Shown: positions 26,901 to 55,742, numbered from the stretch's first letter. The stretch is DNA of 56,872 bases from a virus (IMGVR_UViG_3300046170_000355:1-56872), one strand, 5' to 3'. The notes: a model not told the origin generated them from the sequence alone. Numbers and translations: made by a program.

Positions 26901-27328
26901 ATAAATTTTTTACTTGTGTAGATAACTATATTTCTGATGAAGAGTGTCTAAAGTATATTAACACTTACAATGACAACATAGCTTCGTCCTACATATATAA
27001 TAATACAAAACCTCTTCCTATAGCTTCCGATCACACTGTTCAAAAAATATATAATGATTTTAATATTCAAAATAGATTAGATAATTTAGAAATTGTTATG
27101 AGAGAAAAAGGCTCTTTTATGGACAATCATTTTGATACTGGAGATAGTTTAGCTTTTATACTTTATTTAAACAATGATCTAAAAGGAGGACAAACTGTTT
27201 TTGAAAATGAGACAGTGATTTACCCTAAAGTAGGTAGATTGATTTTATTTTCAAATGGTCAAATTTTACATAAGGTAAAAAAGATAACTCAAGGTAAAAG
27301 GTATGTTCTTGCAGGATGGTTTATCTAA
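26897..27328 (+). CDS. 2OG-Fe(II) oxygenase
   Basis: HFD, ILYLN, GGQTVF, LHKV, GKRYVLAGW. Confidence 0.85.
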   Translation: MNKFFTCVDNYISDEECLKYINTYNDNIASSYIYNNTKPLPIASDHTVQKIYNDFNIQNRLDNLEIVMREKGSFMDNHFDTGDSLAFILYLNNDLKGGQTVFENETVIYPKVGRLILFSNGQILHKVKKITQGKRYVLAGWFI

Positions 27329-46836: not shown

Positions 46837-48297
46837 ATGTTATTAGAAAAATACAAGTTTAAAACTAAACCTATGCAACACCAGTTAATCGGCTTAGGTG
46901 CAATGATGTCTCAATTTGAGAATCATAGTCCTGAGTATGCTTTATTTATGGAAATGGGTTGTGGTAAAACTAAGGTACTTATTGATGGTGTCTCTATTCT
47001 TTATGATAATGGAAAAATTGATCAATTGTTTGTCGTTTGTCCTAATGGAATTAAATATAATTGGCGTGATGAATTAAAAAAACATTTAGCAGATCATATT
47101 GAATTTGAAGTTCATGTTTGGGAAGGTGCAAAAACTAAGAAAGAACAAAAGGAAATAAAAGAAAAATTATTTTCTATTAATCAAAAATTAAAAATTTTGA
47201 TTATGAATGTTGAAAGCATTATTACTGCCTATGGCTCCAAGATTGCAGATAGTTTTAGTTATTCTGGAAAAACTTTAATGTGTATTGATGAGTCTACAAT
47301 TATTAAAAATATGTCTACGAAGAGGACAAAGCGTTGTATTAAAATTGGCAGCACTGCTAAATATCGTGTTATTTTAACAGGTTCACCTATTACGAAATCA
47401 CCAGAAGATTTATATGGTCAATGTGCTTTTTTAAGTGAAGACTTATTAGGGTTTAGCTCCATTTATTCGTTTAAGGCCAGATACTGTGATCAAGTTAAAT
47501 TATCTTTTGGTGGTCGTAGTTTTAATAAAGTTACCGGATATAAAAGACTAGACGAACTTACAGATAAAATACGGCAATTTTCTTATCGTGTTACTAAAGA
47601 TGAAGCATTAGATCTTCCTGATAAAATTTATATGAAAAGACGTGTTCCCATGAATGAAAAACAACTTAAAGCTTATGTTCAAATGAAGAATTTAGCCTTG
47701 GTTCAGTTAGAAGAGGGGGAATTAACTACGGCCACCTTGATTGCTCAATTAAAACGACTTCATCAAATTGCGTGTGGTTATATGACGACTGATGAAGGTG
47801 ATATTATTGATTTTTCTGAAAATAGATTAAAAGAATTACTCGATACAATTGAGGAGGTCGATGGAAAAGTAATTATTTGGTGCTCGTATCGCCATAATAT
47901 TAGAAAAGTAATTGAAACTTTAGATAAGAAGTTCGGATCGGGGTCCGCGGAGGGTTTTTATGGAGAAACTCCAAGCACAGAAAGACCTAAAATATTAGAA
48001 AAATTTTTAAATCCGAAACATCATATGAGGTTCTTGGTCGGTCACCCTCGGACAGGGGGGTATGGACTGACTTTGACGATAGCCAAAACCATGATTTTTT
48101 ATTCTAATGATTATGACTTAGAGATAAGGGAACAGGCGGAAGCCAGAAATCATCGTATTGGAACAGAAAGTAAGGTAACATACGTTGATTTAGTTTGCGA
48201 AGGAACTGTAGATGAAAACATCTTAAAAAGTCTTCGGCAGAAAATAAATATAGCAACTCAAATAATGGGAGAGGAGTTTAAAAAATGGTTGATTTAG
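46837..48297 (+). CDS. SNF2-like SF2 helicase
   Basis: MEMGCGKT, IDES, ILTGSP, GGYGLTLT, QAEARNHRIG. Confidence 0.9.
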   Translation: MLLEKYKFKTKPMQHQLIGLGAMMSQFENHSPEYALFMEMGCGKTKVLIDGVSILYDNGKIDQLFVVCPNGIKYNWRDELKKHLADHIEFEVHVWEGAKTKKEQKEIKEKLFSINQKLKILIMNVESIITAYGSKIADSFSYSGKTLMCIDESTIIKNMSTKRTKRCIKIGSTAKYRVILTGSPITKSPEDLYGQCAFLSEDLLGFSSIYSFKARYCDQVKLSFGGRSFNKVTGYKRLDELTDKIRQFSYRVTKDEALDLPDKIYMKRRVPMNEKQLKAYVQMKNLALVQLEEGELTTATLIAQLKRLHQIACGYMTTDEGDIIDFSENRLKELLDTIEEVDGKVIIWCSYRHNIRKVIETLDKKFGSGSAEGFYGETPSTERPKILEKFLNPKHHMRFLVGHPRTGGYGLTLTIAKTMIFYSNDYDLEIREQAEARNHRIGTESKVTYVDLVCEGTVDENILKSLRQKINIATQIMGEEFKKWLI

Positions 48298-50101: not shown

Positions 50102-50168
50102 ATTTATTTGATGTTTTTAAAAATAAATGTGTGGAAATTTATATCAAGAATTTGATATACTAAGATTT

Positions 50169-50192
50169 CGTGCGTACGCACGTATATATAAT
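50169..50192 (+). promoter_or_regulatory. Palindromic operator-like site next to a -10 box
   Basis: Perfect palindrome CGTGCGTACGCACG (50169-50182), TATAAT at 50187-50192, then AAGGAG and ATG 50217. Confidence 0.6.
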
Positions 50193-50216
50193 GTAAATTT
50201 TAAAAAGGAGTGAAAA

Positions 50217-50847: not shown

Positions 50848-50916
50848 TCTTCTTTCCTTTCTTATATTATTTTATAGCTTTTTACAATAAATGCTACAGA
50901 CACTTTCTTATATATG

Positions 50917-50958
50917 TATACGTGCGTATGCGTATGCACTAATGCAATTTTTATTTAA
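50917..50958 (-). promoter_or_regulatory. Repeated promoter/operator-like element, copy 1
   Basis: + strand TATACGTGCGTAT...GCACTAATGCAATTTTTATTTAA, also at 52331-52375. Confidence 0.55.
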
Positions 50959-51029
50959 TGATAATGTCTTAAAAATTATTATAGTAATAGAGTGTATTTA
51001 TAAAATGCACTCCTCCTTTAATAAGACAA

Positions 51030-51059
51030 TAAGGGGTTTTCCTAATGAAAGCCCCTTAT
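51030..51059. terminator. Hairpin downstream of ORF 51072-51341
   Basis: TAAGGGG...CCCCTTA inverted repeat. Confidence 0.5.
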
Positions 51060-51071
51060 ACTGATTTTGAT

Positions 51072-51341
51072 CTAAAGACTTGGAATAATTGAAAGATCTC
51101 TCAAATTTGTATGAATTGCCCCAACGTCATTTCCTTCTTCATCTGACATAATCATTAATTCAATATCTTGTTTCATTTGTTTGACACCAAAAGGCTTATT
51201 AAGATGAAGGACAATTCCATGTCCATCGATTTCACCCTCTCCCCATTGGTCATGAGGTTTGAAAGTAACTTTTGTTATTCTCATATTTTTTAAAAAATAA
51301 TTTGTTTTCATTTCCCATTCTTTAATTTTACTTTTTTTCAT
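51072..51341 (-). CDS. Array hypothetical protein
   Basis: Motif plus AGGAGG upstream; SDEEGND.G. Confidence 0.8.
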   Translation of the reverse strand: MKKSKIKEWEMKTNYFLKNMRITKVTFKPHDQWGEGEIDGHGIVLHLNKPFGVKQMKQDIELMIMSDEEGNDVGAIHTNLRDLSIIPSL

Positions 51342-51409
51342 TTTTGGTAGCCTCCTATTGCTACAGACACAAAGGGAGGGAAAACTTAATTTCCCTCCCT
51401 TAAAATTAT

Positions 51410-51967
51410 TTAATGACCATATAAAGAATCAGTCTCGTATTTGGGGACATTGTCCCACTTACTGCCATAAGTAAAGCCATATAAAGCAATATGGTTATTT
51501 CTACCCACTCTTTTTGTCATGGTTTCCCCTTTTTCAATCCTTGTTGGTTGGACTTTGTTTCCATATGACCCATTTTGTTCGACATATTCTTTTTGTACTT
51601 TGACAATTTCAATTGTTTGTTTGCCTTTTAGAGCTACAACTTTAAAAAAGTCAACATTGGTTTGATCATATCCCCAAGAACAGTAAATAAAGTCACCGAT
51701 TTGATAATCGTGCCCTTGGCTTCTTTCTTTTCTTCTTTCGACTACAGATTGTTTTTGTGAAATTCTTCTTTCAATAGCTTTTTTGATTGTTTCATCCATT
51801 TGATTCAAATCTTTAAATCTATAATGCCAAAAAGGTTTTTTTGTTTTTGGTGTATGACAACAAGCAACCATTTTTATAGTATCTGCGAATATTTCTAAAT
51901 CGTTTAAATCATCTTTTATAATATGATCTGTATTATATTTTTCGTAGTTGTTTGGTATTATTCTCAT
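51410..51967 (-). CDS. Array hypothetical protein
   Basis: Motif plus AGGAGG upstream; SWGYDQTNVDFFKVV. Confidence 0.85.
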   Translation of the reverse strand: MRIIPNNYEKYNTDHIIKDDLNDLEIFADTIKMVACCHTPKTKKPFWHYRFKDLNQMDETIKKAIERRISQKQSVVERRKERSQGHDYQIGDFIYCSWGYDQTNVDFFKVVALKGKQTIEIVKVQKEYVEQNGSYGNKVQPTRIEKGETMTKRVGRNNHIALYGFTYGSKWDNVPKYETDSLYGH

Positions 51968-52011
51968 AATTTATAGCCTCCTATTGCTACAGACACAAAG
52001 GGAGGGAAAAC

Positions 52012-52296
52012 TTAATTTCCCTCCAATTCTCCTCTTATTGTTTTTATGCAGTCCCAACAAAAAACATTGTCATCAATGTCAAAATTGTTTTTATTCTGAT
52101 AATCTTCAATTTTTTTGTCATCACATTCAAAATTCTCAGAACTTAAATACATAGCTTGTTCTTCTCTTTCTTGATGAGAGCCACCAAGATCAAAATAATC
52201 TTGGCATTTAGAACATTCTCTAAATGAAAATGGTTCATCTGTTAATTCTTCTTGAGTAGATAAAGAAAATGTATCAAATAATTGTTTACTAATCAT
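52012..52296 (-). CDS. Array protein with two CxxC motifs
   Basis: Start at ATG 52296 after the motif RBS; CSKC...CWDC. Confidence 0.75.
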   Translation of the reverse strand: MISKQLFDTFSLSTQEELTDEPFSFRECSKCQDYFDLGGSHQEREEQAMYLSSENFECDDKKIEDYQNKNNFDIDDNVFCWDCIKTIRGELEGN

Positions 52297-52330
52297 TTTT
52301 AATAGCCTCCTATTGCTATAGACACTTATA

Positions 52331-52375
52331 TATACGTGCGTATATGCGTATGGCACTAATGCAATTTTTATTTAA
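52331..52375 (-). promoter_or_regulatory. Repeated promoter/operator-like element, copy 2
   Basis: Near-identical to 50917-50958. Confidence 0.55.
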
Positions 52376-52455
52376 AAAAATTTTTTGAGATCCAGGTTTT
52401 TAAGTAAAAATTTTTGATTTTTTAAATTGCTATAGACACTCAAAGAAATGGGGGA

Positions 52456-52725
52456 TTAACCCCCAAAATCCTTCTTTATTGTTTCAGCTTCTTCGATATC
52501 TCCCCATTGAGTTCTAATCTCATCAAAAGATAATTGAAAAGGATAGTTTGCAAGAAAGGGTTCAAAGTCGTTTATATCTTCCCCTTGCTCTTGGATTTCA
52601 ATGACATTCTCTTGAGCAGAAAAAATAAGATCATTAATTTTTTTCATTTTTTCTAAAAGCTCTAATTTCTGCTCAGTAATATATTTTTGACTTCCTAATT
52701 CTTCTAAAGTTTTATTTATATTCAT
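52456..52725 (-). CDS. Array hypothetical protein
   Basis: Start at ATG 52725 after the motif RBS. Confidence 0.75.
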   Translation of the reverse strand: MNINKTLEELGSQKYITEQKLELLEKMKKINDLIFSAQENVIEIQEQGEDINDFEPFLANYPFQLSFDEIRTQWGDIEEAETIKKDFGG

Positions 52726-52771
52726 ATTAAATAGCCTCCTATTGCTATAGACACTCAGAGAGAAAAGGGGT

Positions 52772-52963
52772 TTAAACCCCTTTAATTTTCTTTTCAATTT
52801 CTTTTAATTTTTCATCATTCGCTTTTAATCTTTTATTTGCAAAATTTATTTTTCGATGCCAGAAATTTATATAACTTTCAATTTCTTCTTTTTCGTTTTG
52901 AAGCTTGAAAAGTTTTTTTTCTTTTTCTGACATTTGATCAATGTCTTTTTGTGTTACTGTCAT
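52772..52963 (-). CDS. Array hypothetical protein
   Basis: ATGA-coupled to the upstream gene; stop lies in a hairpin loop. Confidence 0.7.
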   Translation of the reverse strand: MTVTQKDIDQMSEKEKKLFKLQNEKEEIESYINFWHRKINFANKRLKANDEKLKEIEKKIKGV

Positions 52964-53163
52964 TGGCTTTCTTCCTCATAATGTAAATTAGATAAATGAA
53001 TTTCTTTTTCCCAATCTAATTTAAATAAATCGCAATAATGCCTTAAATCTGCAATGACATCCCCAACCCTTGGATATGTGTTTTTCTGGTTCTTCTCATA
53101 AAGTTTTTCATTTAATCCTAAAAGTTTTTTTACTTTTAATGCTCTTTGTCTATTAGTTATCAT
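52960..53163 (-). CDS. Array hypothetical protein
   Basis: Motif RBS; DVIADLRHYCD. Confidence 0.8.
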   Translation of the reverse strand: MITNRQRALKVKKLLGLNEKLYEKNQKNTYPRVGDVIADLRHYCDLFKLDWEKEIHLSNLHYEEESQ

Positions 53164-53177
53164 ATTAAATAGCCTCC

Positions 53178-53507
53178 TTAATTGCTATAGACACTCAAGA
53201 CAAAAAGGGCTAAGAAGCCCTTTTCATTCCTTTCAATGATTGATTTTAGTATAAGTTTAGAAGCCTCGTTGATAGTGTCTTCTTTAATTGCTAGGTGTAA
53301 ATCTTCACTAAGCCAATTATATAAAAAATCAAATTCATCTTTTTTTAATATTACTGCTTCATAATTTTTATGAGTAAATAATATTGCTTTTGATTTTCTC
53401 TCATGAGAGACAATATTTAAAAGAGTATCTAAAAGAACTTTCTTTGATATTTTTTCTCTTTCAAATTGTTCGACTAAATCATTTAAATCATTAATTAAAC
53501 TAGTCAT
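53178..53507 (-). CDS. Array hypothetical protein (C-terminus uncertain)
   Basis: Coupled to the upstream gene; as sequenced it reads through the hairpin and motif. Confidence 0.65.
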   Translation of the reverse strand: MTSLINDLNDLVEQFEREKISKKVLLDTLLNIVSHERKSKAILFTHKNYEAVILKKDEFDFLYNWLSEDLHLAIKEDTINEASKLILKSIIERNEKGFLALFVLSVYSN

Positions 53508-53799
53508 TAATATTTTCCCCCCATCCTTTTGATTTTCTCACTAAATCATAAGCAGAGTTATCATCTAAAATATTGGCTAATTCATAATTTAAATCGTCTT
53601 TTTCTTCTTGCGTCTTGTCCTTATGTAAATCAATTAATTTATCTTCTAGGGTTTCAATTGTGTTTACTAGATTTTGAATATCTTCATTTTGCTTTTTGAT
53701 TTCCTTTTCAAGATCTTTTTTTATTTCTTCAAGATCAATTACTATTTGATTTACTGAATATTGCACCTCTTCATATTTTTCTTTTTGTTTTTTATTCAT
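53500..53799 (-). CDS. Array coiled-coil protein
   Basis: Motif RBS upstream. Confidence 0.8.
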   Translation of the reverse strand: MNKKQKEKYEEVQYSVNQIVIDLEEIKKDLEKEIKKQNEDIQNLVNTIETLEDKLIDLHKDKTQEEKDDLNYELANILDDNSAYDLVRKSKGWGENIND

Positions 53800-53891
53800 A
53801 TTTAATAGCCTCCTATTGCTATAGACACTTAAAGAGAACCACGAAGAGAGAAACTCGCCTCGTGGCTCGTGGCTTTTATTATGATTTATAT

Positions 53892-54020
53892 TTATTTATT
53901 GCTTATAAAACTTTTATAAAATTGAATAAAAGCTCTAATTCCCATTTCATTCGGTGCAAATAATTTGCCCCAACCAACATTGGCATTATACATTTCTTGC
54001 ATTTCTTTGGACATTATCAA
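53892..54020 (-). CDS. Array small protein (40-42 aa, MSKEMQEMYNANVGWGKLFAPNEMG...)
   Basis: Hand-translated; variant motif followed by an AGGGGGUGA RBS. Confidence 0.55.
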   Translation of the reverse strand: MIMSKEMQEMYNANVGWGKLFAPNEMGIRAFIQFYKSFISNK

Positions 54021-54063
54021 AATAAATCACCCCCTTTCTACAGACACTCAGAGAAGGAGGCAA

Positions 54064-54450
54064 TTAAGCCTCCTCCTGATTTTCAATAGATATATTTTCG
54101 ATTATTCTATTATCGTGGTTGGGATTATTGGTTTCATAACCGAAACCCTCTTCCTCGTCATCATAATTAATATATTCGTCAATACTTTTCCAAGGTTTGA
54201 AAGAGTATTCAAGGCAGTTAGTTGCATAATGATATGCAATAATATGATCATTATTTAAATGTATAAATAAATGAAAAAAATTACCTCCACTTCCATAATT
54301 ATCAACTTCTTTAATTTCATAAAGAATATCGAAATTATTAAACCAAGGGATATTTTTTTTAATAAGATCAAAGAAATATTCTTTTTTATTTATTAAGTCT
54401 GTTAATCTTAAAAATTCAAAATGTTCTTGTCGTGTTAATTGTAGTTTCAT
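54064..54450 (-). CDS. Array hypothetical protein
   Basis: Start at ATG 54450 after the motif RBS. Confidence 0.78.
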   Translation of the reverse strand: MKLQLTRQEHFEFLRLTDLINKKEYFFDLIKKNIPWFNNFDILYEIKEVDNYGSGGNFFHLFIHLNNDHIIAYHYATNCLEYSFKPWKSIDEYINYDDEEEGFGYETNNPNHDNRIIENISIENQEEA

Positions 54451-54492
54451 AATAAATAGCCTCCTATTGCTATAGACACTCAAGAGAAAGGG

Positions 54493-54885
54493 CTAAGAAG
54501 CCCTCTCCATTGCGTTATTAAATCCAACTATAAAACCTAATAATTCATGCTTAGAATTAAATCTTTTATAGTCTTCATTATATCGACTGTAACCAATATT
54601 GATTGAATAATCGTGGAAAGATATTCCTTGGTTTTCCACTCTGTTCAATAATCTTTGATCATAATCTTTAGTAGATTTTTCTAATAATTTTTTTAAGTTT
54701 CGTTTAAATTGAAAACATTGATCAGCGTAATAATATTTATTATCACCACTCAAACGAAAATTAATATTTTCTTTATTTCGAATAAATTGTAGCTCGTTTA
54801 GTTCAAGATATTCTTCTGTAATGTGTTCGCCTTTTCTTACTTTATCTACTAATTCAATATATCTTTTTTGTTGTTTCTTATTCAT
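54493..54885 (-). CDS. Array hypothetical protein
   Basis: Start at ATG 54885 after the motif RBS. Confidence 0.78.
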   Translation of the reverse strand: MNKKQQKRYIELVDKVRKGEHITEEYLELNELQFIRNKENINFRLSGDNKYYYADQCFQFKRNLKKLLEKSTKDYDQRLLNRVENQGISFHDYSINIGYSRYNEDYKRFNSKHELLGFIVGFNNAMERAS

Positions 54886-54931
54886 AATAAATAGCCTCCT
54901 ATTGCTATAGACACTCAAGGGAAAGGGGACT

Positions 54932-55273
54932 TTATAAGTCCCCATTTAATTTATGGCAATGTAAAGCGTAACCAATGGGGCAACCATGTTTGCCCCATTG
55001 ATCGTCTTTAAAATTATAAAATTCGTTTCTTCTTTGTTCTAAGAAAAAACACTCATACCCATTAAAATCTAATTCATAAGGGTTTAAGTCATCGTCAAAA
55101 TGCCAACATTTGCCAATTTTAACAATGTATCGAATAAAGGCTCTCGCCTCGCTGATCGTTTTAATTTGTTTTCTTATAAAACGATGATAGGGCAATTTTG
55201 TCCAATATTCGTTGGGGTGATCATCTTTTGAAAAACAAAAATCTGCTCTTTGGTTTAAATAATCTTGTTTCAT
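54932..55273 (-). CDS. Array hypothetical protein (first gene after the ribozyme)
   Basis: Motif RBS upstream; WHFDD. Confidence 0.8.
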   Translation of the reverse strand: MKQDYLNQRADFCFSKDDHPNEYWTKLPYHRFIRKQIKTISEARAFIRYIVKIGKCWHFDDDLNPYELDFNGYECFFLEQRRNEFYNFKDDQWGKHGCPIGYALHCHKLNGDL

Positions 55274-55283
55274 AATAAATAGC

Positions 55284-55363
55284 CTCCTATTGCTATAGAC
55301 AAGGGGGAAAATATCCCCCTTTAGTGTTTCGCCTATTTAAGGCTCATCAGTATAGCTTTGGAG
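55284..55363 (-). ncRNA. Type I hammerhead ribozyme
   Basis: Minus strand CUCC AAA GCUAUA CUGAUGA GCCU UAAAU AGGC GAA ACA CUAA AGGGGGA UAUUU UCCCCCU UGU C^UAUAGC AAUA GGAG: complete conserved core, stems I-III and a GUC triplet. Confidence 0.9.
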
Positions 55364-55510
55364 TGTTTCGACTGTTCAACTTTGGAAGGTGTCACCTTCT
55401 AGGCTCTGTGCCTTAAGGACTATCTATTTATCCTCGCATTAAGTGTTCAATATGTTCGGAACACCTAACGAAATAAGTTCAATACTTACCGACCGAAGTC
55501 GACCCTAATT
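55364..55510 (-). ncRNA. Putative structured RNA domain 5' of the hammerhead
   Basis: Six consecutive hairpins, including GAC-UUCG-GUC, in a non-coding stretch. Confidence 0.5.
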
Positions 55511-55742
55511 ACCCCAATGACTAAATTATATAAATCTAGTGTGGTTGTAAAAATGGCTTCAATTAAAATCTTCATTACTAATTAATATAAGCATTTTTAT
55601 CATAAATTAAAGTATTTTATTTGAAATAATTGACTGCCTGAAATCGTAAAAAGACTGGTCCGATTTTAAGAGGGCTAGAAGTGTCAAGTTTATTTTTGAG
55701 AGTGATTTTTTTAGAGCTCTGTTAAAATGCTCTGTATGGCTC

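Follow-up and report, generated by a model that had tools for sequence, protein, structure and literature searches.

The window analysed here is a complete marine phage genome of 56.9 kb, and its minus strand carries an array of early genes headed by a hammerhead motif. A conserved, structured, non-coding leader of about 150 nt (55364..55515, the 5' limit being approximate) lies directly upstream of a hammerhead enzyme strand (55323..55363). This is followed by a G/C hairpin (55303..55319) capping stem III in the cis fold, by the cis cleavage site UUGUC^UAUAGCA (55291..55302, with C17 at 55298 and the predicted cut, marked ^, at 55298/55297) and by a local 5'UTR hairpin, AUAGC/GCUAU, whose loop holds the Shine-Dalgarno GGAG (55279..55296). 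The ATG of the first gene lies 3' of this hairpin, at 55273.

Eleven half-sites, none with any hammerhead core, are found further downstream on the same strand. The form GUGUC^UAUAGCA occurs at 54903..54914 (C17 at 54910; followed by a Shine-Dalgarno hairpin and a gene), 54468..54479 (C17 at 54475), 53817..53828 (53824), 53183..53194 (53190), 52743..52754 (52750), 52428..52439 (52435; no Shine-Dalgarno hairpin or gene after it) and 52314..52325 (52321; directly 3' of a palindromic promoter-like element). Four half-sites have a UGUAG variant: GUGUC^UGUAGAA at 54036..54047 (C17 at 54043), where position 6 is A, the Shine-Dalgarno differs and the start codon is TTG, and GUGUC^UGUAGCA at 51985..51996 (51992), 51359..51370 (51366; local hairpin compensated to GCUAC) and 50892..50903 (50899). 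This last half-site, which has a long-loop hairpin and comes after a second palindromic promoter-like element, has an equivalent in relatives. The 12-nt core is kept at 52435 and 50899 though no Shine-Dalgarno or gene follows either; its presence at 52435 shows that the core can persist in the absence of the translation module. The stem III strand reads AGUGUC at nine of the eleven half-sites, forming 5 bp with ACACU, and UGUGUC at the other two, forming 4 bp.

A search for AGTGTCTRTAG with at most one mismatch returned 12 matches, eleven on the minus strand and one, with one mismatch, on the plus strand (26943), against 1.31 expected from shuffled sequence; none of 100 shuffles reached 12. 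A first-pass annotation had proposed the core, the cis site and eleven core-less half-sites, with the same pairing lengths and four UGUAG variants, and the motif search bore out each of its coordinates and counts.

That annotation included neither the leader nor the local hairpin. In the four closest relatives, 10 of 34 predicted leader pairs are preserved through changes on both sides, as are 8 of 28 pairs of the equivalent leader in 11 further relatives; the leader matches no Rfam family. The local hairpin begins one base past each cut site and covaries among 64 distinct sites, with AU in 42, GC in 16 and GU in 4 at one position and AU in 37 and GC in 26 at the other. Changes in the site are almost always compensated in the hairpin strand (GCCAU or GCUAC). 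Stem I of the hammerhead and the local hairpin compete for one strand.

A conserved type I hammerhead

Read 5' to 3' on the minus strand, the enzyme strand consists of CUCC, AAA, GCUAUA, CUGAUGA, stem II, GAA and ACACU. The core spans 55356-55323, with CUGAUGA at 55350-55344, GAA at 55330-55328, and a stem II of GCCU and AGGC around the loop UAAAU. All core bases are present, together with G10.1-C11.1, A15.1-U16.1 and the GUC triplet, and the geometry is that of a type I hammerhead, stem III being hairpin-closed and stem I open-ended. From this full match to the hammerhead consensus we infer self-cleavage, which in hammerheads is Mg2+-dependent and leaves 2',3'-cyclic phosphate and 5'-OH ends. 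Stem I reaches further outward than the first-pass annotation had described, through pairing between CUCC (55363-55360) and the Shine-Dalgarno GGAG. It comprises 6 bp, then an internal loop and CUCC/GGAG, while stem II has 4 bp and a loop of 5-7 nt, a geometry that fits a candidate tertiary contact between loop II and the stem I internal loop. Contacts of this kind give fast hammerhead cleavage at low Mg2+. The A at +7 is invariant (94 of 94 sites).

The claim of a single catalytic core also stands: a scan of the whole 56.9-kb genome found no other whose stem II has 4 bp or more, the one look-alike being a weak 3-bp match at +47789, inside an SNF2 helicase ORF. In 12 distinct relatives all 14 pairs are paired in 100% of cells, stem II covaries at three of its four pairs, with four pair types at one position, and the observed score was reached by none of 500 shuffles. 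Once metagenome contigs were added, 31 distinct relatives yielded ten stem II variants and 21 stem III hairpin variants. CUGANGA and GAA are kept in all 31, N7 alone varying (U, C or G), and the cleavage triplet is GUC at all 31 cis sites. The hammerhead is thus genuine and conserved, with a covarying stem II across 31 distinct relatives. No Rfam family matches the motif at its gathering threshold; the best scores were 18.3 bits for Hammerhead_HH9 (cut-off 52) and 17 for RAGATH-1-hammerhead (cut-off 56.3), and the relatives' hammerheads likewise fall below threshold. To us these scores reflect limited model coverage of the phage subclass and do not count against the fold.

One enzyme strand and many half-sites

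All five whole relative records contain exactly one core, followed just downstream on the same strand by 6-11 sites matching GTGTCTRTRGCA; the reversed-pattern control found none. One of these records, rated 100% complete, has one core and 11 sites. The pairing of one core with many half-sites that the first-pass annotation had proposed therefore recurs as a design. Other phages with an identical stem II and loop instead have a complete hammerhead at each intergenic site, with arms that differ each time (six complete cores in phage contig L031 and seven in L038); extra site-like matches in phages of this type fall within coding sequence.

The stem I arm GCUAUA and the stem III arm ACAC are identical in all 31 distinct hammerheads, which were found by scans that left the stem I arm, or both arms, free; none of the 31 has altered arms. 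Of the 31 cis sites, 18 include a G.U wobble in their pairing with the arm (UAUGGC in 14, UGUAGC in 4), and the arm compensates in none. Half-sites of the ribozyme's family vary at only two paired positions, both of them purines facing arm uridines, so that A and G both pair, and an arm can pair with all the site variants present within one genome only if it has U at both positions. The double-wobble form UGUGGC is found at none of 83 hairpin-defined sites. We also assembled a set of 88 sites, defined by GGAGGCYAY and a start codon only, with no upstream motif presupposed. GUGUC-URURGCA lies upstream in 79 of these; five of the nine exceptions differ solely at unpaired position 17 (three U, two A, no G), with GUGU intact. 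Triplets at the remote sites are accordingly GUC, GUU or GUA and never GUG, obeying the NUH rule. This variation fits the expectation that all sites pair with one fixed enzyme strand, in that the arms are frozen and the site purines are wobble-tolerant.

The statistical arguments to be drawn from the variable positions are modest. By our own arithmetic, the chance that both fall among the 3 wobble-tolerant of 10 paired positions is about 0.07, and that of no G among five position-17 variants is about 0.13. The sites are related copies and may be homogenised by recombination, so their counts are not independent events. Nor is the complementarity of arm and site independent evidence, since one of the repeat copies is the cis site. 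The first-pass annotation had further held that the last arm bases, CU, are bulged in cis and pair at the remote sites; this is true of the window's lineage but not elsewhere, a full GUGUC cis site being present in 30 of 31 distinct relatives. The fifth stem III arm base varies (A, U or G) without matching the sites, and stem III in trans is just 4 bp in most genomes.

When the freed enzyme strand was cofolded with the remote sites one at a time, the optimal structure was trans pairing of the hammerhead type for 8 of the 11 sites in the window and for 30 of 55 in eight relatives; for the remaining 3 and 25, respectively, full hammerhead pairing is not optimal. Values of ddG for the window sites range from -7.6 to -13.8 kcal/mol, versus -4.7 +/- 2.2 for 166 control windows, of which the lowest reached -13.5 kcal/mol. 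The model energies would thus allow a trans complex. The enzyme would still carry its own GUGUC tail once it had cleaved itself, and this tail may be a competitor for the ACAC arm.

Proposed mechanism and alternatives

We propose, as somewhat the likelier outcome, that the leader-ribozyme frees itself by self-cleavage and then cuts the half-sites in trans. The array would begin with a non-coding RNA, the structured leader of about 150 nt plus the type I enzyme strand, which would fold with the first copy of the site during transcription and cut after GUC (55298/55297). The small RNA so released would have free arms, CUCC..GCUAUA and ACAC, and its position at the 3' end of a structured leader would suit a stable trans-acting RNA. 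Pairing with the eleven downstream half-sites, GUGUH^URURGCA(..GGAG), it would rebuild stems I and III and cut each of them. The gene upstream of each cut would then end in a protective hairpin and a 2',3'-cyclic phosphate, and the downstream message would start with a 5'-OH and, one base on, the 5-bp hairpin that displays the Shine-Dalgarno in its loop. Because this local hairpin uses the strand that had paired with the ribozyme, refolding would drive product release. Such processing might, as the first-pass annotation proposed, need no host RNase. Cleavage in trans and a stabilising role for the new ends are what we infer from this arrangement. A stronger form, to which we give an even chance, is that of a true multi-turnover enzyme that frees itself and cuts some ten cognate sites located on other RNAs, yielding single-gene messages with a 5'-OH and a terminal hairpin, its arm uridines having been selected as universal partners.

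The chief alternative, which we regard as possible but rather unlikely, is a hammerhead that acts only in cis, stripping a long structured leader from the first message, while the eleven copies are a shared 5'UTR module for translation or stability, spread and homogenised by recombination among small early-gene cassettes and, at the remote sites, either uncut or cut by a protein RNase specific for that motif. Complete cis hammerheads immediately upstream of phage genes are common, both in the arrays described in PMC3088659 and in phage contigs, and a ribozyme that arose on one of the repeat copies would account for the arm complementarity with nothing more. Support for the local hairpin that displays the Shine-Dalgarno is strong in its own right, and RNA-library contigs of relatives depart from the window at the motif edges (loose ends at 51334-51339 and 51370), which fits cassette mosaicism. 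A cis-only function nevertheless leaves unexplained why GUGU, which lies upstream of the hairpin, is unchanged in the 84 of 88 sites bearing the motif, with variation only at position 17 (C, U or A), why the 12-nt core persists at sites with no Shine-Dalgarno or gene, why the arm leaves the wobble uncompensated at 18 of the 31 cis sites when covariation is free in stem II and in the local hairpin, and why the enzyme strand has been lost at all sites but the first in the ribozyme's family alone.

Two further readings use the same complementarity or the same repeats differently. The leader-ribozyme might bind the half-sites as an antisense RNA without cutting them, covering the Shine-Dalgarno and timing or repressing early-gene translation; the outer arm CUCC does pair with the GGAG of each Shine-Dalgarno, and the optimal computed structure has stem I pairing at 9 of 11 window sites and 44 of 55 sites in relatives. 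We consider this very unlikely, as all 31 distinct sequences keep the catalytic core in full and the sites retain both the stem III strand and GUH, neither of which antisense binding by itself would require. We find it hardly credible that the repeats are promoters read by a transcription system specific to the phage, preceded by terminator hairpins and matching the hammerhead only incidentally, although the region has more terminator-like hairpins than expected (18 versus 2.1), several of them just upstream of sites, and CUAUAG may resemble the end of single-subunit RNA polymerase promoters. Here the covariation points to a hairpin at the RNA level, conservation upstream of the Shine-Dalgarno is limited to 12 nt, the hairpins of relatives adjoin the site without a U-tract, and a sigma-70 scan was not enriched (25 versus 30 expected). 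The large ORFs yielded no RNA polymerase domain; a PF00940 scan of the genome had no match, a weak absence because the positive controls were silent too.

Comparison with known systems

In the early mRNA of T7, host RNase III cuts the polycistron between genes and leaves hairpins at the new ends. The trans-cleaving ribozyme that we propose would likewise cut an early polycistron between genes and leave hairpins at the ends, but T7 relies on a host protein enzyme that recognises double-stranded RNA, whereas here the enzyme would be a phage-encoded RNA. A discontinuous hammerhead was reportedly described by Martick et al. in 2008 in mammalian Clec2 3'UTRs. Its enzyme and substrate strands are reportedly likewise far apart on the RNA, but its single substrate strand is part of the same transcript, and it is neither multi-target nor from a phage.

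Perreault et al. (2011; PMC3088659) describe clustered complete hammerheads that flank prophage genes and propose that these process long transcripts into single-gene mRNAs. The window's locus resembles those arrays in having a hammerhead between small phage genes and a stem II/loop subclass common to many phage contigs. It differs in that each of their sites is described as having a complete ribozyme with its own arms, whereas here a genome has one enzyme strand and 6-11 sites of identical sequence, and no complete ribozyme accompanies each processing site.

Engineered trans-cleaving hammerheads, as presented in PMC6412130 and PMC12531169, share the split into a two-armed enzyme strand and an NUH substrate, and in these a contact from a stem I bulge to loop II matters for activity in cells; they are designed, whereas the phage arrangement is natural. 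Most natural hammerheads are said in PMC6412130 to self-cleave and not to act in trans, and the natural small nucleolytic ribozymes are described as cis-acting in PMC6765202. RNase P RNA, which according to the latter paper catalyses hydrolysis in trans, is comparable as a natural trans ribozyme with many substrates and turnover. It has another fold, its hydrolysis leaves a 5'-phosphate, and it recognises shape rather than pairing through arms. A literature search found no natural counterpart of a multi-target trans hammerhead, in agreement with the first-pass annotation, which knew of none in phages.

Implications

Three observations are new within the literature searched and would remain so even if cleavage in trans fails: a leader-ribozyme RNA that is conserved, a 5'UTR module that covaries, and the difference from phages bearing complete hammerheads at every site. 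A genome design that conserves one enzyme strand alongside many substrate strands would make this hammerhead the first candidate, among natural ones, for trans action on multiple targets. Designers of trans-cleaving ribozymes could also take it as a natural template, notable for a stem I extended to take in the Shine-Dalgarno of the target, for arms that tolerate wobble pairs, and for product release through refolding of the target hairpin. A phage ribozyme would gain a concrete function, a long-standing question, and, if the proposal is true, an RNA-only processing system would be conserved across a clade of abundant marine phages.

The phage genome and its cultured kin

At 56,872 bases, the window comprises an entire virus record with a completeness rating of 97%. 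Among its gene products are a large terminase, a portal, a family A DNA polymerase, UvrD-type and SNF2 helicases, an AEP primase and a methyltransferase. On the basis of the large terminase, the closest cultured phages belong to the marine HTVC023P type (023Pt_psg01, HTVC027P, HTVC023P and DSL-LC04; 55.6-59.7% amino-acid identity). The window's ribozyme is absent from all four of these phages, and the published HTVC027P transcriptome is therefore of no use here. A single CTGATGA..GAAAC match in HTVC027P (MN698241.1, 41886-41913, plus strand) is presumed to be a chance occurrence. Searching the phage collection at the DNA level with the 5-kb array gave no match. The genes that follow the half-sites (core-less copies of the cleavage sequence) are small and of no known function; three of ten match PHROG families likewise without known function.

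A single type I hammerhead

The enzyme strand, consisting of the hammerhead core and its two arms (stem I GCUAUA, stem III ACAC), occupies 55363-55323 on the minus strand and reads CUCC-AAA-GCUAUA-CUGAUGA-GCCU-UAAAU-AGGC-GAA-ACACU. It is followed 3' by a G/C hairpin and then by the cis site, UUGUC^UAUAGC-A-AUAGGAGG (the caret marks the predicted cut), with an ATG at 55273. The hammerhead is of type I: no core base is missing, the pairs G10.1-C11.1 and A15.1-U16.1 and the GUC triplet are in place, and an outer extension of stem I (CUCC/GGAG) covers the Shine-Dalgarno sequence; the fold has an energy of -26.1 kcal/mol (z-score -3.5). No other credible core is found in the whole genome; a CTGATGA..GAAA string at 47789 (plus strand), with a 3-bp stem II and inside the SNF2 helicase ORF, was judged a chance match.

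Rfam does not report this hammerhead at its curated thresholds (best model Hammerhead_HH9, 18.3 bits versus a cut-off of 52). Despite this sub-threshold score, comparative data settle the question. A scan for the core plus arms across viral contigs returned 18 loci, 16 of them members of the family, by which we mean the window's hammerhead and its relatives; leaving the stem I arm free returned 15 family loci and two unrelated matches in high-GC coding sequence (L023, L024). A metagenome scan added 33 family rows, and all scans pooled yield 31 distinct sequences. In 12 distinct family sequences, each of the 14 pairs tested is formed without exception, and stem II covaries at three of its four pairs, with a score reached by none of 500 shuffles. 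Among the 31 distinct ribozymes, stem II occurs in 10 versions (a hairpin is inserted in some) and the stem III hairpin in 21, with U, C or G at N7, the variable core base. The window's hammerhead is almost certainly real. Some family members carry an expanded stem II (GCCCUAUAAUACAUAGAAUGGGC; contigs L070, L077, L093 and L113), and L093 and L113 have a stem III insertion of ~50 nt as well, with unchanged arms.

Half-sites and the local hairpin

The first-pass annotation had described one core and eleven half-sites, an observation that we confirm: a motif search of the window recovers all eleven exactly where they had been placed. This search gave 12 matches versus 1.3 expected, a number reached in 0 of 100 shuffles; the twelfth match carries one mismatch and falls beyond the array, at 26943 on the plus strand. 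Within each site the order is a variable-sequence hairpin, GUGUH^URURGC-A, a short loop whose 3' end is GGAG, and GCYAY, which pairs back to the URURGC strand. The resulting local hairpin, which the earlier annotation had missed, begins one base 3' of the predicted cut and carries the Shine-Dalgarno sequence in its loop. Each of the two purine positions changes in concert with its pairing partner over 64 distinct sites (AU 42, GC 16, GU 4 at one; AU 37, GC 26 at the other); no shuffle of 500 equals the score, and slid controls collapse. The recurrent change of UAUAG to UGUAG had been read as a wobble that preserves pairing with the arm. That pairing is indeed kept, but the change is not just tolerated, because the local hairpin compensates for it fully. 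The motif GUGUC^URURGCA is retained at sites lacking a Shine-Dalgarno sequence or a following gene (52435, 50899 and their equivalents in relatives), and A at +7 is invariant (94 of 94 sites).

One core and many sites in relatives

Each of five whole relative records contains exactly one core and 6-11 sites (GTGTCTRTRGCA), which lie on the strand of the core and at most a few kilobases downstream, apart from one extra site on the other strand in one record (G003); a reversed-pattern control gave zero matches. One core and 11 sites are present in the relative record whose completeness is rated 100%. The same stem II and loop recur in other phages, in which each gene is preceded by a complete hammerhead of its own, with arms that differ from site to site; six cores were counted in contig L031 and seven in L038, in both of which the extra site-like matches fall inside coding sequence. 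In AP013542.1, an uncultured Autographiviridae pelagiphage, the early region contains three hammerhead cores (about 5462, 6007 and 8155, plus strand), two of which can be read as complete type I ribozymes with a cis site (arms GCAACA and GCAAAA). The 3' product of its first ribozyme can refold as a hairpin from the new 5' end (UGUUGC-AUAC-GCAACA), following the same logic as the window's local hairpin.

Two further groups surfaced in the scans. A type III hammerhead above the Rfam threshold (Hammerhead_3, 49.6 bits) is found at L011:379-435 (minus) and L019:220-300 (plus), with the family's arm sequences circularly permuted (GUGUC^UAUAG ... CUAUA-CUGAUGA ... GAA-ACAC); the rest of these viral contigs is different, and neither shows a half-site array. 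A second hammerhead family, found in nine metagenome contigs (L062, L066, L076, L085, L089, L097, L098, L099 and L114), reads CUCCAAA-CAGCAG-CUGAAGAG..CGAAAC-CGA..GGUC^CUGCUG just 5' of an ATG, and has the CUCCAAA prefix in common with the window's family but different arms.

Do the sites answer to the enzyme strand?

Complementarity between arms and sites is by itself no proof of trans cleavage, given that the cis site itself belongs to the set of repeats. The main rival is a ribozyme that acts only in cis and arose from the first of several copies of a common 5'UTR module; it predicts the same complementarity, and we regard it as rather less probable than trans cleavage. The arms are frozen (GCUAUA and ACAC in 31 of 31 distinct ribozymes). 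By comparison, stem II and the stem III hairpin are free to vary. The cis site is UAUGGC or UGUAGC in 18 of the 31, placing a G.U inside stem I, and in none of these has the arm switched to C, whereas the local hairpin strand almost always does. All three site variants are mixed in every genome, and U is the only arm base that pairs with both purines. Free-arm scans of the viral and metagenome collections turned up no family member whose arms differ. One enzyme acting on many substrates is the best explanation of these sequences, and we would call it slightly more probable than not.

Sites defined solely by GGAGGCYAY and a start codon (n=88) have GUGUC-URURGCA upstream in 79 cases. Three of the nine exceptions lack the motif, one is the window's cis site (UUGUC), and five differ only at position 17, the base 5' of the predicted cut, where three have U, two have A and none has G; this is the sole unpaired position, and H there is a hammerhead requirement. 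The double-wobble UGUGGC occurs in 0 of 83 hairpin-defined sites, with ~12 expected from the single frequencies by our arithmetic. Such counts are not independent events, as the sites share ancestry and recombination may be keeping them uniform, and the site statistics are modest in what they suggest about a link to the single enzyme strand. A fifth stem III pair, proposed earlier for the remote sites, exists in the window, but the proposal does not extend to the family: the cis GUGUC is complete in 30 of 31 distinct relatives, and the base at the fifth arm position (A, U or G) does not follow the site sequences.

When the released enzyme strand was cofolded with 72-nt windows around each remote site, hammerhead-type trans pairing was the optimum at 8 of the window's 11 sites, with ddG of -7.6 to -13.8 kcal/mol; 166 control windows had a mean of -4.7 +/- 2.2 and a minimum of -13.5 kcal/mol. 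Across eight relatives, full trans pairing formed at 30 of 55 sites, and stem I at 44 of 55.

Leader, putative promoters and transcripts

The ~150 nt leader 5' of the enzyme strand is conserved and folds into helices with compensatory changes (8 of 28 pairs in 11 relatives, 10 of 34 in the window's subgroup); no Rfam family was found for it. Upstream, most relatives have a TTGAC..TATGGT motif, which we interpret as a putative promoter. A self-released RNA of ~200 nt with free arms would fit a trans-acting role; alternatively, the leader may simply be removed from the message in cis.

The window's array contains 18 hairpins with U-rich tails versus 2.1 expected. The hairpins of relatives adjoin the site and lack a U-tract, so we read the array hairpins as 3'-end structures rather than strong terminators. 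Scanning for sigma-70 promoters gave no excess. Neither the window's large ORFs nor a PF00940 search of the genome yielded a single-subunit RNA polymerase, the latter a weak absence given that its controls gave no signal.

A palindromic element (..ACGCACGTAT.. / CGTGCGTACGCACG) followed by TATATA is present in three copies, at 52328-52372 (minus), 50905-50950 (minus) and 50165-50195 (plus); two are directly 5' of half-sites 52321 and 50899 and one precedes a plus-strand gene, and the same element precedes sites in relatives. It may be a regulated internal promoter (an operator-promoter), in which case sites 52321 and 50899 would lie on ribozyme-free transcripts and trans action would be required.

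Four marine RNA-library runs (0.05-0.11 of sampled words; low-depth assembled contigs; three of four oligo-dT) gave one contig across the cis site (55233-55382) and one across site 54043; DNA carry-over is possible, assembled contigs do not reveal RNA ends, and these contigs are not evidence either way. RNA-library contigs of relatives agree with the window across the repeat alone and diverge beyond it (51334-51370, 52755-52763), which suggests that cassettes of a mosaic gene array meet at the repeat.

Relation to known hammerheads

No natural multi-target hammerhead was found in the literature searched, chiefly openly accessible main texts. The word "ribozyme" is absent from the main text of two pelagiphage papers, as are "promoter" and "intergenic" from that of one of them, PMC9599517. 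A 2019 review (PMC6765202) treats small nucleolytic ribozymes as cis-acting and presents the discontinuous Clec2 hammerhead as the case prompting a search for trans-cleaving ribozymes. Clusters of hammerheads in phage, with a proposed role in processing long phage transcripts, were described by Perreault et al. 2011 (PMC3088659); the hammerheads reported there are complete, whereas the window's family has one enzyme strand and many substrate strands. The complete hammerheads found before each gene in other phages indicate that many cis ribozymes are the ordinary phage solution, whereas this family retains a single enzyme strand.
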